Of a DNA stretch of 59,926 nt, positions 27,487 through 59,926 are shown piece after piece (the first letter of the stretch is position 1; each line of letters starts with the position of its first letter). The position numbers were made by a program, and so were the translations under genes. A model generated the notes under the pieces. The model was given only the letters and a program-made list of their open reading frames with translations, ran no database searches and was not told where the DNA came from. Source of the DNA: Escherichia coli (GTDB taxonomy: Bacteria > Pseudomonadota > Gammaproteobacteria > Enterobacterales > Enterobacteriaceae); assembly GCF_003334765.1 (NCBI RefSeq), contig NZ_QOWT01000024.1; one strand, 5' to 3'.

Positions 27487-27517
27487 ATCGCCTCCCATTA
27501 ACTATTGCCAGCTACAA

Positions 27518-27532
27518 GCAATAATTGTGCCA
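27518..27532 (-). promoter_or_regulatory. Sigma-54 (-24/-12) promoter of the hyp operon
   Basis: Plus strand GCAATAATTGTGCCA, reverse complement TGGCACAATTATTGC; about 30 bp upstream of hypA ATG on the minus strand. Confidence 0.7.
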
Positions 27533-27559: not shown

Positions 27560-27605
27560 GTCGATGATGTCGAAATGACACGTCGACACGGCGACGAAAT
27601 TCATC
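27560..27605. promoter_or_regulatory. Putative FhlA upstream activating sequence (hypA-hycA intergenic)
   Basis: TGTCGATGATGTCGAAATGACA ... CGACGAAATTCAT; the same motif recurs in the hycA-hycB intergenic region. Confidence 0.6.
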
Positions 27606-27645: not shown

Positions 27646-27661
27646 TGGCACAAAAAATGCT
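27646..27661 (+). promoter_or_regulatory. Sigma-54 (-24/-12) promoter of the hyc operon
   Basis: TGGCAC-N6-TGCT, matching the TGGCAC-N5-TTGC class with correct GG to GC spacing; about 40 bp upstream of hycA ATG. Confidence 0.75.
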
Positions 27662-27697: not shown

Positions 27698-28159
27698 ATG
27701 ACTATTTGGGAAATAAGCGAGAAAGCCGATTACATCGCACAGCGGCATCGTCGCCTACAGGACCAGTGGCACATCTACTGCAATTCGCTGGTTCAGGGGA
27801 TCACGTTATCGAAAGCGCGCCTGCATCACGCCATGAGCTGCGCGCCGGACAAAGAACTCTGTTTCGTCCTTTTTGAACATTTTCGCATTTACGTCACCCT
27901 GGCGGATGGCTTTAACAGCCACACCATCGAGTATTACGTCGAAACAAAAGATGGCGAAGACAAACAGCGGATTGCGCAGGCGCAACTGAGCATTGACGGC
28001 ATGATTGATGGCAAGGTCAACATCCGCGATCGCGAACAGGTTCTGGAACACTATCTCGAAAAAATCGCTGGCGTTTACGACAGCTTATACACCGCTATTG
28101 AAAACAATGTGCCGGTGAATTTAAGCCAACTGGTAAAGGGACAAAGCCCGGCAGCATGA
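27698..28159 (+). CDS. hycA: Formate hydrogenlyase regulatory protein HycA
   Basis: 153 aa ORF, first gene of the hyc operon, divergent from hypA. Confidence 0.9.
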   Translation: MTIWEISEKADYIAQRHRRLQDQWHIYCNSLVQGITLSKARLHHAMSCAPDKELCFVLFEHFRIYVTLADGFNSHTIEYYVETKDGEDKQRIAQAQLSIDGMIDGKVNIRDREQVLEHYLEKIAGVYDSLYTAIENNVPVNLSQLVKGQSPAA

Positions 28160-43087: not shown

Positions 43088-44221
43088 CTACATCGGCAAT
43101 GTTTTCAACAATCCAAATGCCTCTTTCATCCGATCCTCACTGACCACAAAGGCGCGAAGCTGGTCAGCATCGTCAACGCCGCGCGCCACCATTCCCTGGC
43201 GTTCGGTATTAATTTGCCAGCGTAAATCCTGACGCTGGGTTTCGCCTGCCAGATGCAGCGGTAATTCCGGCGTTTTGATTTTCACCAGCATCGCCGGGAG
43301 TTTCAGCGGCGTGTTATTGCCGAGAAGATTTTTTGCCAGCACCATCGCGCTAAGTTGAATCGGCTGGAGGAACGGCAATACCTGACCGTTAATTTCCGCG
43401 CAATCGCCCAGCGCGTAAATATCGGTATTACTGGTTTGCAGATAACTATCGACGCAAACGCCGCGATTAATCGTCAGCCCGGCGCGTCGTGCCAGGGCGG
43501 TTTCCGGGCGCAGTCCGGTGGCGGCAATTACCGCATCCACTTCGATGCTACGCTGGCGGTCCAGCGTTGCCAGAATGCCAGAATCCGTTTTTTCCAGCCC
43601 CTGCAACTGAGATTTCAACAGCAGATGAACACCCATCTCCGTCAACCGATGCTGCAAGCGGCTGCTTACTTCCGGTGGCATTAACGACGCCAGAATACTG
43701 GCAGCGTTGTCGATTAGCGTGACCGCTTTGCCTGCACGACAAAAATCCATCGCCAGTTCGCTACCAATCAAACCACCGCCAACAATCAACACGCGTCGGG
43801 CATCCCGCAGTTGCGTTTCACAGGCGCGATACTCTTGCTGACTATTTAACGTCAGCATTAACTCACGCCCAGGCACAGGCGGGACAAAGGCGCTGGCACC
43901 GGTTGCCAGCACTAACTTGTCGTATTGCCACTGATTATTCTGGCTTTTCACCACATGGGCTTCGGCATCGATATCCGTCACCCAGGTGTGCGGAAACAGG
44001 CGCAGATTAAACTGCTCGGCAAATTCACCCGCCGTCTGGCGGGTAAGGTCGTCGGCACGTTGCCCCTGACTGATAACATGGCTGAGGTCAGGTTTGTTGT
44101 ACTCATCTATGCTGTCGGCGGCAATCAAGGTTAATGGAATAGTGGCGTCCTGTTTGCGAATATTTTTCACCAGTTGTCGGGCGGCGAAGCCCGAACCAAT
44201 GATCACAATGCCGTTGCTCAT
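43088..44221 (-). CDS. norW: NADH:flavorubredoxin reductase
   Basis: 377 aa ORF with FAD/NAD-binding motifs ([14 protein letters not shown]). Confidence 0.95.
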
Positions 44222-45657
44222 TTTGCCTCCGATGCCAGTTCGTCAAAGACGTCTTTGCCGAGGGAGCATTCCGGGCACAGGAAGTTATCCGGGACTTCAC
44301 TCCACGGCGTTCCTGGTGCAACGTCCTGCATTGGCTCGCCTTTTGCCGGATCGTAAATCCACCGGCAGACGCTGCACTGCATCCGTGGGCCGAGGTCAGC
44401 CGTCGTGGCGGCAGAGGTTTCTTCTTTAACTACCGTATTCACCGTGCTCTGCGGCAGCGGCGCGAGCGCCCACTGACGGGCGATTTCGCGACCGTGTTCA
44501 CGGCATAACTCCAGAGCGTCCTGGTCTGGTCGCCATTTGGCTTTCAGGCTGAGCGACATTTCGAAACCCGCATCCTGCAGGCGCGTGGAAAGACGATCCA
44601 CCGCACCGCCGCTCCAGCCGTGAGAGCCGAAAGCACTGGCGCGTTTGTTACGGAAGCGTAAACCAGTCATCTCCTCCACCAGCCCGGCGATTTTCGGCAT
44701 CATCACGTTATTCATCGTCGAAGTGCCGACCAGCACGCCTTTTGAGCGGAAGACATTGGTCAGGATTTCGTTTTTATCGCTTCGGGCGACGTTGAAAATT
44801 TTCACCGCCACGCGTGGGTCGGTTTCCGCAATCCCCTGGGCGATAGCGTCAGCCATCATGCGGGTGTTATTCGACATGGTGTCGTAGAAAATGGTGATTC
44901 TGTCTTCCTGATAATCAGCCGCCCATTTCAGGTACAGCTCGACAATTTGCGTCGGGTTATCGCGCCAGACCACGCCGTGGGAGGTCGCTATCATATCGAC
45001 TGGTAAGTTAAAGCCCAGGATCTCGGTAATTTTCGGCGTTACCAGGCGGCTGAACGGCGTCAGGATATTGGCGTAGTAACGCTGGCACTGCTCGAAAAGC
45101 TCCGTCTGATCCACTTCATCGTTGAACAGATGCTCGTCACAGTAGTGCTGACCGAAAGCATCGTTACTGAACAGCACCGCGTCGCCTGTCAGGTAAGTCA
45201 TCATGCTGTCCGGCCAGTGCAGCATTGGTGTTTCGACAAAAATGAGCTGTTTGCCGTTGCCGATATCCAGCGTGTCGCCAGTTTTCACCACATTAAAATT
45301 CCACTCCGGATGATGGTGATGACCATTTATCGAGTCGATAGCGTTGGCAGTACAGTAGATCGGCGTATCGGGAATTTGTGCCATCAGTTCGGTCAGCGCC
45401 CCAGCGTGGTCCTCTTCTGCATGGTTAATCACGATGTAATCGATATCCGCCAGATCGATTTCATTACGCAGGTTCTGCACAAATTCGCGGCTGAATTTAT
45501 GGTCGACGGTGTCGATCAGCACGTTTTTTTCTTCGCGGATGAGGTAGCTATTGTAGCTGCTGCCGCGCAGCGTTTTATATTCCGTGCCGTGAAAATCACG
45601 CACTTCCCAGTCACGTTGACCAACCCAATGAATGTTATTTTTCACCACAATAGACAT
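44218..45657 (-). CDS. norV: Anaerobic nitric oxide reductase flavorubredoxin
   Basis: 479 aa ORF: metallo-beta-lactamase-like plus flavodoxin domains and a C-terminal rubredoxin CxxC pair. Confidence 0.95.
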
Positions 45658-45703
45658 AGCAACCTCAATTTATTCAGCGTGTTCTAAAAAGATGTCTTGC
45701 TAA

Positions 45704-45720
45704 TTGCAGATTGCGTGCCA
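45704..45720 (-). promoter_or_regulatory. Sigma-54 (-24/-12) promoter of norVW
   Basis: Reverse complement reads TGGCACGCAATCTGCAA, close to TGGCACG-N4-TTGCA; upstream of norV ATG on the minus strand. Confidence 0.8.
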
Positions 45721-45775
45721 GTTTTTTATCTGATTGTTTTTACTCTATAAATAAAATTATGCCCATTAATGAGTA

Positions 45776-45831
45776 GTCAAAATGACTATCAATCAAATGG
45801 TCGATATGACAATATCTATAGTCAAATTGAC
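45776..45831. promoter_or_regulatory. Three NorR binding sites (GT-N7-AC) in the norR-norV intergenic region
   Basis: GTCAAAATGAC (45776-45786), GTCGATATGAC (45800-45810), GTCAAATTGAC (45821-45831). Confidence 0.8.
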
Positions 45832-45843
45832 AGTGAGGCAAAG

Positions 45844-47358
45844 ATGAGTTTTTCCGTTGATGTGCTGGCGAATATCGCCATCGAATTGCAGCGTGGGATT
45901 GGTCACCAGGATCGTTTTCAGCGCCTGATCACCACGCTACGTCAGGTGCTGGAGTGCGATGCGTCTGCGTTGCTACGTTACGATTCGCGGCAGTTTATTC
46001 CGCTTGCCATCGACGGTCTGGCAAAGGATGTACTCGGTAGACGCTTTGCGCTGGAAGGGCATCCACGGCTGGAAGCGATTGCCCGCGCCGGGGATGTGGT
46101 GCGCTTTCCCGCAGACAGCGAATTGCCCGATCCCTATGACGGTTTGATTCCTGGGCAGGAGAGTCTGAAGGTTCACGCCTGCGTTGGTCTGCCATTGTTT
46201 GCCGGGCAAAACCTGATCGGCGCACTGACGCTCGACGGGATGCAGCCCGATCAGTTCGATGTTTTCAGCGACGAAGAGCTACGGCTGATTGCTGCGCTGG
46301 CGGCGGGAGCGTTAAGCAATGCGTTGCTGATTGAACAACTGGAAAGCCAGAATATGCTGCCAGGCGATGCCACGCCGTTTGAAGCGGTGAAACAGACGCA
46401 GATGATTGGCTTGTCCCCTGGCATGACGCAACTGAAAAAAGAGATTGAGATTGTGGCGGCGTCCGATCTCAACGTCCTGATCAGCGGTGAGACTGGAACC
46501 GGTAAGGAGCTGGTGGCGAAAGCGATTCATGAAGCCTCGCCACGGGCGGTGAATCCGCTGGTCTATCTCAACTGTGCTGCACTGCCGGAAAGTGTGGCGG
46601 AAAGTGAGTTGTTCGGGCATGTGAAAGGAGCGTTTACTGGCGCTATCAGTAATCGCAGCGGGAAGTTTGAAATGGCGGATAACGGCACGCTGTTTCTGGA
46701 TGAGATCGGCGAGTTGTCGTTGGCATTGCAGGCCAAGCTGCTGAGGGTGTTGCAGTATGGCGATATTCAGCGCGTTGGCGATGACCGTTGTTTGCGGGTC
46801 GATGTGCGCGTGCTGGCGGCGACTAACCGCGATTTACGCGAAGAGGTGCTGGCAGGGCGATTCCGCGCCGATTTGTTTCATCGCCTGAGCGTGTTTCCAC
46901 TTTCGGTGCCGCCGCTGCGTGAGCGGGGCGATGATGTCATTCTGCTGGCGGGGTATTTCTGCGAGCAGTGTCGTTTGCGGCAGGGGCTCTCCCGCGTGGT
47001 ATTAAGTGCCGGAGCGCGAAATTTACTGCAACACTACAGTTTTCCGGGAAACGTGCGCGAACTGGAACATGCTATTCATCGGGCGGTAGTTCTGGCGAGA
47101 GCCACCCGCAGCGGCGATGAAGTGATTCTTGAGGCGCAACATTTTGCTTTTCCTGAGGTGACGTTGCCGACGCCAGAAGTGGCGGCGGTGCCCGTTGTTA
47201 AGCAAAACCTGCGTGAAGCGACAGAAGCGTTCCAGCGTGAAACTATTCGTCAGGCACTGGCACAAAATCATCACAACTGGGCTGCCTGCGCGCGGATGCT
47301 GGAAACCGACGTCGCCAACCTGCATCGGCTGGCGAAACGTCTGGGATTGAAGGATTAA
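45844..47358 (+). CDS. norR: NO-responsive sigma-54-dependent activator NorR
   Basis: ORF track starts 45769; recognised N-terminus [19 protein letters not shown] begins at 45844, giving 504 aa; GAF domain, AAA+ with GETGTGKE and GAFTGA, C-terminal HTH. Confidence 0.95.
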
Positions 47359-59487: not shown

Positions 59488-59580
59488 GGTGAGGTGGCCG
59501 AGAGGCTGAAGGCGCTCCCCTGCTAAGGGAGTATGCGGTCAAAAGCTGCATCCGGGGTTCGAATCCCCGCCTCACCGCCA
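59488..59580 (+). tRNA. serV: tRNA-Ser (anticodon GCU), long variable arm
   Basis: 93 nt; acceptor stem GGTGAGG...CCTCACC plus CCA, anticodon loop CCTGCTAAGG, T-loop GGTTCGAATCC. Confidence 0.93.
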
Positions 59581-59583
59581 TTT

Positions 59584-59660
59584 GCATCCGTAGCTCAGCT
59601 GGATAGAGTACTCGGCTACGAACCGAGCGGTCGGAGGTTCGAATCCTCCCGGATGCACCA
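59584..59660 (+). tRNA. argV: tRNA-Arg (anticodon ACG)
   Basis: 77 nt; GCATCCG acceptor stem, anticodon loop GGCTACGAACC, T-loop GGTTCGAATCC, 3' CCA; 3 nt after serV. Confidence 0.93.
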
Positions 59661-59858
59661 TATTCTACGTACTTTCAGCGATGAAGGTATGGAAGAGGTG
59701 GCGGTAATAACCGCAGGCACCAGGGAGGATAACGTTGCTTTAGCAACGGCCCGAAGGGCGAGCCGCAAGGCGAGTAATCCTCCCGGATGCACCATCTCTT
59801 ACTTGATACGGCTTTAGTAGCGGTATCAAAAAATCTGCAGTAAAGTAAGTTTCCCGAT

Positions 59859-59926
59859 GCATCCGTAGCTCAGCTGGATAGAGTACTCGGCTACGAACCG
59901 AGCGGTCGGAGGTTCGAATCCTCCCG
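59859..59926 (+). tRNA. argY: tRNA-Arg (ACG), second tandem copy, truncated by the window end
   Basis: Identical to the first 68 nt of the copy at 59584-59660; starts exactly 275 bp after it. Confidence 0.85.

Follow-up and report, generated by a model that had tools for sequence, protein, structure and literature searches.

The norR-norVW divergent control region of Escherichia coli: promoter, three-site NorR enhancer and conservation across the Enterobacterales

The norR-norVW region of Escherichia coli K-12 has reportedly been studied by Tucker et al. in 2004 and 2010, Gardner et al. in 2003, Hutchings et al. in 2002 and Justino et al. in 2005. The PnorV/NorR pair has found wide use as an NO biosensor. 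Three inverted repeats upstream of norV, each with a GT-N7-AC core, are bound by NorR (Tucker et al. 2010, NAR, PMC2831303), and each of them is required for norV-lacZ induction, for the ATPase activity of NorR and for open-complex formation. In methylation protection experiments, mutation of a single site removes protection at the mutated site only; apo-NorR also binds DNA, and the DNA-bound protein forms a ring-shaped oligomer (PMC2831303). Open complexes at norV are sigma-54-dependent (PMC2831303), and IHF binds between the norV start site and the enhancer in E. coli (PMC2831303, citing Tucker 2004), with mention of a second IHF site in a further paper (PMC11334186). Genomic SELEX identifies the norR/norV spacer as the single strong target of NorR, accompanied by two minor peaks elsewhere (PMC8249747), and the same spacer is selected by the RpoN holoenzyme (PMC8743547).

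The locus described here is almost certainly this E. coli norR-norVW divergent control region, working as published. The region is thus already known and has been dissected experimentally, and there is no new biology at the locus. An earlier sequence-only reading, which had called the spacer the norR-norV control region, was accurate, and we set out below how its individual claims compare with database searches, published experiments and an alignment of orthologous spacers.

Gene layout and control elements

The window, that is the whole stretch of 59,926 nucleotides that was analysed, includes a segment (45400-46100) for which sequence searching gave 100% identity with E. coli K-12 MG1655 and with other strains. 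With this segment as the query, the norV-norR region was found in all 5426 of 5426 complete E. coli genomes. One E. coli record has a plasmid copy of the region, and three copies are found in at least one genome. PGAP annotation of the 100% identical K-12 record gives the gene order hypF, norW, norV, norR, gutQ, srlR. The minus strand carries norW and norV, the plus strand carries norR, and the intergenic spacer between norR and norV measures 186 bp (45658-45843). The features of the locus, with NorR site scores from the weight matrix described below, are as follows.

43088-44221, minus strand: norW, 377 aa, NADH:flavorubredoxin reductase, encoded second in the regulated operon (PGAP and NCBIfam NF003437)
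44218-45657, minus strand: norV, 479 aa, anaerobic NO reductase flavorubredoxin, the gene transcribed first from the sigma-54 promoter (PGAP and NCBIfam NF003954)
45658-45694, minus strand: norV 5' untranslated leader, from a putative start site 37 nt before the norV ATG
45705-45720, minus strand: norVW sigma-54 promoter TGGCACGCAATCTGCA (TGGCAC-GCAAT-CTGCA), 1 mismatch to TGGCAC-N5-TTGCW
45722-45745, no strand assigned: T-tract and IHF-like element, a block kept in the 79-sequence alignment
45746-45775, no strand assigned: AT-rich spacer or looping arm, poorly conserved, between the IHF region and the enhancer
45776-45786: NorR enhancer site 1, GTCAAAATGAC, promoter-proximal, centre at -87, 23.2 bits
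45800-45810: NorR enhancer site 2, GTCGATATGAC, centre at -111, 18.8 bits
45821-45831: NorR enhancer site 3, GTCAAATTGAC, centre at -132, 25.0 bits
45834-45838, plus strand: TGAGG, the probable ribosome-binding site of norR, 5 nt upstream of its ATG
45844-47358, plus strand: norR, NO-sensing sigma-54 enhancer-binding protein, 504 aa (PGAP and NCBIfam NF003451)

The identities of norR, norV and norW, as previously read from the letters, are borne out both by PGAP annotation of the identical K-12 record and by NCBIfam equivalog scores that lie far over their cutoffs. NorR scores 822.2 bits against NF003451 (cutoff 476) with residues 2-503 covered, NorV scores 1045.5 bits against NF003954 (cutoff 711) and NorW scores 684.6 bits against NF003437 (cutoff 392). 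The GAFTGA loop, which makes the sigma-54 contact, is present in NorR at residue 262. A longer open reading frame for norR (45769-47358) was considered and rejected, as the annotated start is at 45844 and the upstream in-frame ATG falls inside the enhancer. An Rfam scan of the whole window returned tRNAs at its far end only and no match in the norR/norV spacer. These tRNA genes form a cluster at the right end of the window (59488-59926), the last of them being cut by the window edge.

To extend the comparison across species, a NorR scan of one genome per species was used and gave 80 Enterobacterales loci. A divergent norV accompanies norR in 78 of these 80 loci, with a spacer of 179-192 bp, and in the other two the contigs are too short upstream to tell. 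The 78 relatives together with the window make up the alignment of 79 spacers that is referred to throughout, across which the GAGG of the probable norR ribosome-binding site is kept.

The sequence-only reading had placed a -24/-12 element on the strand opposite norR, and its coordinates are exact. The reverse complement of 45704-45720 is TGGCACGCAATCTGCAA, in which the promoter doublets GG at -25/-24 (45719/45718) and GC at -13/-12 (45707/45706) are 10 bp apart, with CTGCA as the -12 element, which differs from TTGCW at one base. The bases TGGCA are found in 79/79 orthologous spacers, T-14 in 79/79 and G-13 in 78/79. A sigma-54 scan, which had been suggested as a check, recovers the element at 45705-45720 with 1 mismatch, but the pattern alone does not rise above chance: when up to 1 mismatch is allowed there are 4 matches in the window against 3.4 expected, so that a single match is not significant and the weight of the assignment comes from context and conservation. 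All four matches are located in the norR/norV spacer, in the hypA/hycA spacer or just inside hycA, both spacers being divergent and adjoining operons that depend on sigma-54. Viewed in this context, the element at 45705-45720 represents the sigma-54 promoter of norV.

The transcription start was placed with the aid of the published limits of G protection, which are -84 and -137 (PMC2831303). If +1 is set at 45694, these limits coincide with the minus-strand G residues 45778 and 45831, and the promoter GC falls at -13/-12. Setting +1 at 45692 gives an equal fit, to the plus-strand G residues 45776 and 45829, with a promoter numbering that is non-canonical. We infer that 45694 is the canonical reading of the norV start site, with 45692 as the alternative.

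The IHF-binding region between promoter and enhancer was absent from the sequence-only reading. A search of the promoter-enhancer arm (45721-45775) for the IHF consensus WATCAANNNNTTR, allowing up to 1 mismatch, gave no match. The position homologous to the consensus is found at 45727-45739 on the minus strand (AAACAATCAGATA); it is centred near -39 and carries 2 mismatches in the window, while in 25/79 relatives it is an exact consensus on the minus strand. In the 79-spacer alignment a conserved T-tract and TTGAT block is seen just upstream of the -24 element. Because of the 2 mismatches in the window, support for the IHF site in E. coli comes from published work and homology, not from the consensus.

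Three GTC-N5-GAC palindromes had been reported at 45776-45786, 45800-45810 and 45821-45831, coordinates that are exact, and all three fit the GT-N7-AC core and GTC-N5-GAC alike. Their distance from the -24/-12 element, previously estimated as about 55 to 110 bp, is 56 to 111 bp when measured from the -24 element. The description of the palindromes as evenly spaced is only approximate, as the centre-to-centre distances are 24 and 21 bp. Relative to the norR ATG the sites span -13 to -68, immediately ahead of the conserved GAGG, and the right edge of site 3 is 12 bp from the ATG. Comparison with the published NorR enhancer, a further check that had been proposed, links these palindromes directly to experiment: the mutagenic primers of PMC2831303 map onto all three, the Site1 primer to 45767-45794, the Site2 primer to 45792-45817 and the Site3 primer to 45814-45843, each with exactly 2 mismatches, which are the designed GT>GG and AC>CC changes. 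The primers thus identify the palindromes with sites 1 (promoter-proximal), 2 and 3 of the published enhancer.

A weight matrix for the NorR site was built from the 237 sites of the 79 spacers, the window's own three included, and in a scan with this matrix these three sites score 25.0, 23.2 and 18.8 bits, the next best score in 59.9 kb being 8.5. A fourth GTC-N5-GAC (GTCACGTTGAC, 45610-45620) was considered as a downstream NorR site and rejected. It lies inside norV codons 13-16 (G-Q-R-D) and is probably a coding coincidence; the motif needs a GGT glycine codon, which is kept in only 25/78 relatives.

Conservation and natural variation of the spacer

The cross-species numbers show a rigid geometry, comprising the site cores, the 24/21 bp site spacing, a promoter-enhancer arm of 54-57 bp and the 12 bp to the ATG, set against a freely drifting spacer. 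Three GTC-N5-GAC palindromes are present in 77 of the 79 spacers and the exact 24/21 bp spacing in 76, while the distance from the -24 element to the start of site 1 is 54-57 bp in 78 and the 12 bp from the end of site 3 to the norR ATG are kept in 75. The 18 core bases of the sites are 99.9% conserved, compared with 0.52-0.63 for the inter-site DNA and 0.48 for the promoter-enhancer arm, the latter figure being the mean identity to the window base over 45740-45775 across the 79 spacers.

Within E. coli a similar picture is seen. A 64-bp block covering the enhancer is identical in 3739 E. coli records, its matches never fall below 95%, and it is without a match in 3/5426 genomes; the adjacent 64-bp arm is identical in only 1412 records, a further 172 match it at 80-90%, and 442 genomes have no match to it. 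Among six aligned E. coli strains, substitutions affect the arm and the DNA separating site 1 from site 2, and the palindromes, the promoter and the norV leader are all free of them. The looping arm is the most polymorphic part of the region within the species. The IHF-like core is also polymorphic within E. coli: it reads TTGTT in the window, or AACAA on the minus strand, and TTGAT in strains EC556 and AF3, whose minus strand thereby regains the ATCAA core found in most other genera.

The E. coli isolate AF3 (NZ_OZ547117.1, L003:3001-3141) has a norV-norR spacer of 141 bp, with a 45-bp deletion that corresponds to 45783-45827 of the window. Site 1 keeps only its left half and site 3 only its right half, and the two halves are joined into a single hybrid site, GTCAAAATGAC; an assembly error is possible. 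On the basis of the published three-site requirement, AF3 is predicted to be without induction of norVW by NO, and rare natural variants of this kind may be NO-blind for norVW.

A further variation concerns the -12 base of the norV promoter, for which 33 of the 79 spacers carry C, 43 carry A and 3 carry T. The sequences CTGCA or CTGCT, with the canonical -12 C, are found in 33 spacers, from Escherichia, Citrobacter, Salmonella and Kluyvera; TTGAT, in which the -12 base is A and not the normally conserved C, is found in 40 spacers (Enterobacter, Klebsiella, Kosakonia, Raoultella and others), and TGGCA, T-14 and G-13 are invariant in this second group. The -12 region helps to keep the sigma-54 closed complex silent. 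For this reason the two forms might differ in leakiness or NorR dependence, although we regard it as a doubtful proposition that the norV promoter exists in two lineage-specific forms, possibly differing in basal leakiness or in dependence on NorR.

Regulation of norR and alternative readings of the palindromes

The earlier interpretation also held that norR is regulated from the same three sites, and this is its least directly supported part. Hutchings et al. are said to have found negative self-regulation of norR in E. coli in 2002. Support for self-regulation in this organism comes from geometry, from secondary citations and from direct V. cholerae data. Two papers, both of them secondary for this point, name norR alongside norVW among the genes regulated by E. 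coli NorR (PMC8249747, PMC11334186), and V. cholerae NorR has been shown directly to repress its own promoter, independently of NO (PMC3345576).

It is possible to envisage that the palindromes activate norV and have no part in the control of norR, whose expression would then change through interference by divergent transcription, through IHF or FNR, or not at all. A scan for a sigma-70 promoter of norR, which gave no plus-strand match, favours such a view, as do the FNR-dependent effects on norV expression that have been reported (PMC11227560). The position of the enhancer argues the other way, since only 12 bp separate site 3 from the norR ATG, a distance maintained in 75/79 spacers, and norR transcripts must for that reason start in or upstream of DNA occupied by NorR, which is bound with or without NO (PMC2831303). 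The V. cholerae precedent and the two statements on E. coli NorR cited above likewise speak against an unregulated norR, which we consider improbable. The preferred reading is that NorR, when bound at the same three sites, would also dampen norR transcription, and that this effect would be repression and not the activation exerted at norV, a direction that the sequence-only reading did not give.

The sigma-70 scan returned one weak match, on the minus strand (TTGTCA-16-GATAGT, 45812 to 45785), at chance frequency. The best plus-strand candidate for a norR promoter found by eye, CTGATT-16-TAAAAT at 45730-45757, is below threshold and in unconserved DNA, and is not claimed here.

A second alternative, that the three palindromes are chance occurrences in AT-rich DNA or are targets of another regulator, for example the GAF-domain activator FhlA encoded nearby, is scarcely credible: although GTC-N5-GAC as such is not enriched across the window (16 observed against 11.3 expected), a Poisson model gives about 0.002 as the expected number of triplets inside 56 bp in the window, the core bases hardly vary amid drifting flanks, the published footprints contradict it, mutation of these same sites abolished NorR protection and norV activation (PMC2831303), and the norR/norV spacer is the only strong NorR peak in genomic SELEX (PMC8249747). 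For the AT-rich spacer with its own base composition, the expectation is 0.014 GTC-N5-GAC sites. The possibility of FhlA binding draws on the best non-NorR match to the matrix, TGTCGAAATGACA at 27565-27583, which is flanked by the two sigma-54 promoters found in the hypA-hycA spacer, and on the resemblance that may exist between FhlA-type and NorR-type sites; that match, however, scores 8.5 bits, compared with 18.8 to 25.0 for the NorR sites. The three palindromes of the norR/norV spacer are accordingly retained as the NorR enhancer.

The hyp-hyc region is itself represented in the window by several elements. The GTC-N5-GAC palindrome at 27565-27583 (TGATGTCGAAATGACACGT, 8.5 bits), between the hypA and hycA sigma-54 promoters, is presumably an FhlA upstream site, an assignment that would point to similar half-sites for the related activators FhlA and NorR. 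A sigma-54-like match on the minus strand just before hypA (TGGCACAATTATTGCT, 27517-27532) fits the known hyp promoter, and one on the plus strand before hycA (TGGCACAAAAAATGCT, 27646-27661) fits the known hyc promoter. A further plus-strand match (TGGCACATCTACTGCA, 27767-27782) is found inside the hycA coding sequence.

Proposed mechanism and relation to known systems

In the mechanism as published, which we propose also for this locus, three NorR dimers would occupy the three GT-N7-AC inverted repeats near -87, -111 and -132 upstream of norV, and the enhancer DNA would act both as scaffold and as ligand in assembling NorR into an AAA+ hexamer. Sigma-54 RNA polymerase would wait as a closed complex at the -24/-12 element, and bending of the AT-rich spacer by IHF would enable the hexamer to reach it. 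Binding of NO to the ferrous iron of the NorR GAF domain would then lift the repression of the AAA+ domain, whereupon ATP hydrolysis would open the promoter and norVW would be transcribed. With NorR on its sites in the presence or absence of NO, transcription of norR would be dampened through a putative self-repression. The anatomy, site identity, genes and conservation that enter into this scheme come from the present analysis; binding, the need for three sites, IHF, the hexamer and NO sensing are taken from published papers.

The region serves as the model case in which an enhancer-binding protein depends on three DNA sites for its assembly scaffold, and its closest counterpart is the E. coli K-12 norR-norVW region (NorR UAS1-3, IHF and sigma-54 PnorV), which is the same locus: sequence, sites, genes and layout are alike, and there is no difference between them. 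From the literature, the NorR/norAB system of Ralstonia eutropha and the NorR-hmp systems of Vibrio and Pseudomonas likewise have tandem GT-N7-AC boxes upstream of a sigma-54 promoter that adjoins norR (PMC2831303, PMC1274295), although the NorR targets in these organisms are norB or hmp, unlike norVW here. Vibrio NorR2 has two sites, with the consensus GATGT-N7-ACATC, compared with the three of the present enhancer (PMC1274295). Further parallels are provided by NtrC at glnAp2 and by TyrR, where, as with NorR, tandem upstream dimer sites nucleate an AAA+ oligomer with IHF-assisted looping (PMC2831303). TyrR resembles NorR in that three consecutive boxes build the hexamer (PMC2831303). In contrast, two sites suffice for NtrC, which can also act from solution, whereas NorR strictly needs three and is regulated while assembled on DNA (PMC2831303).
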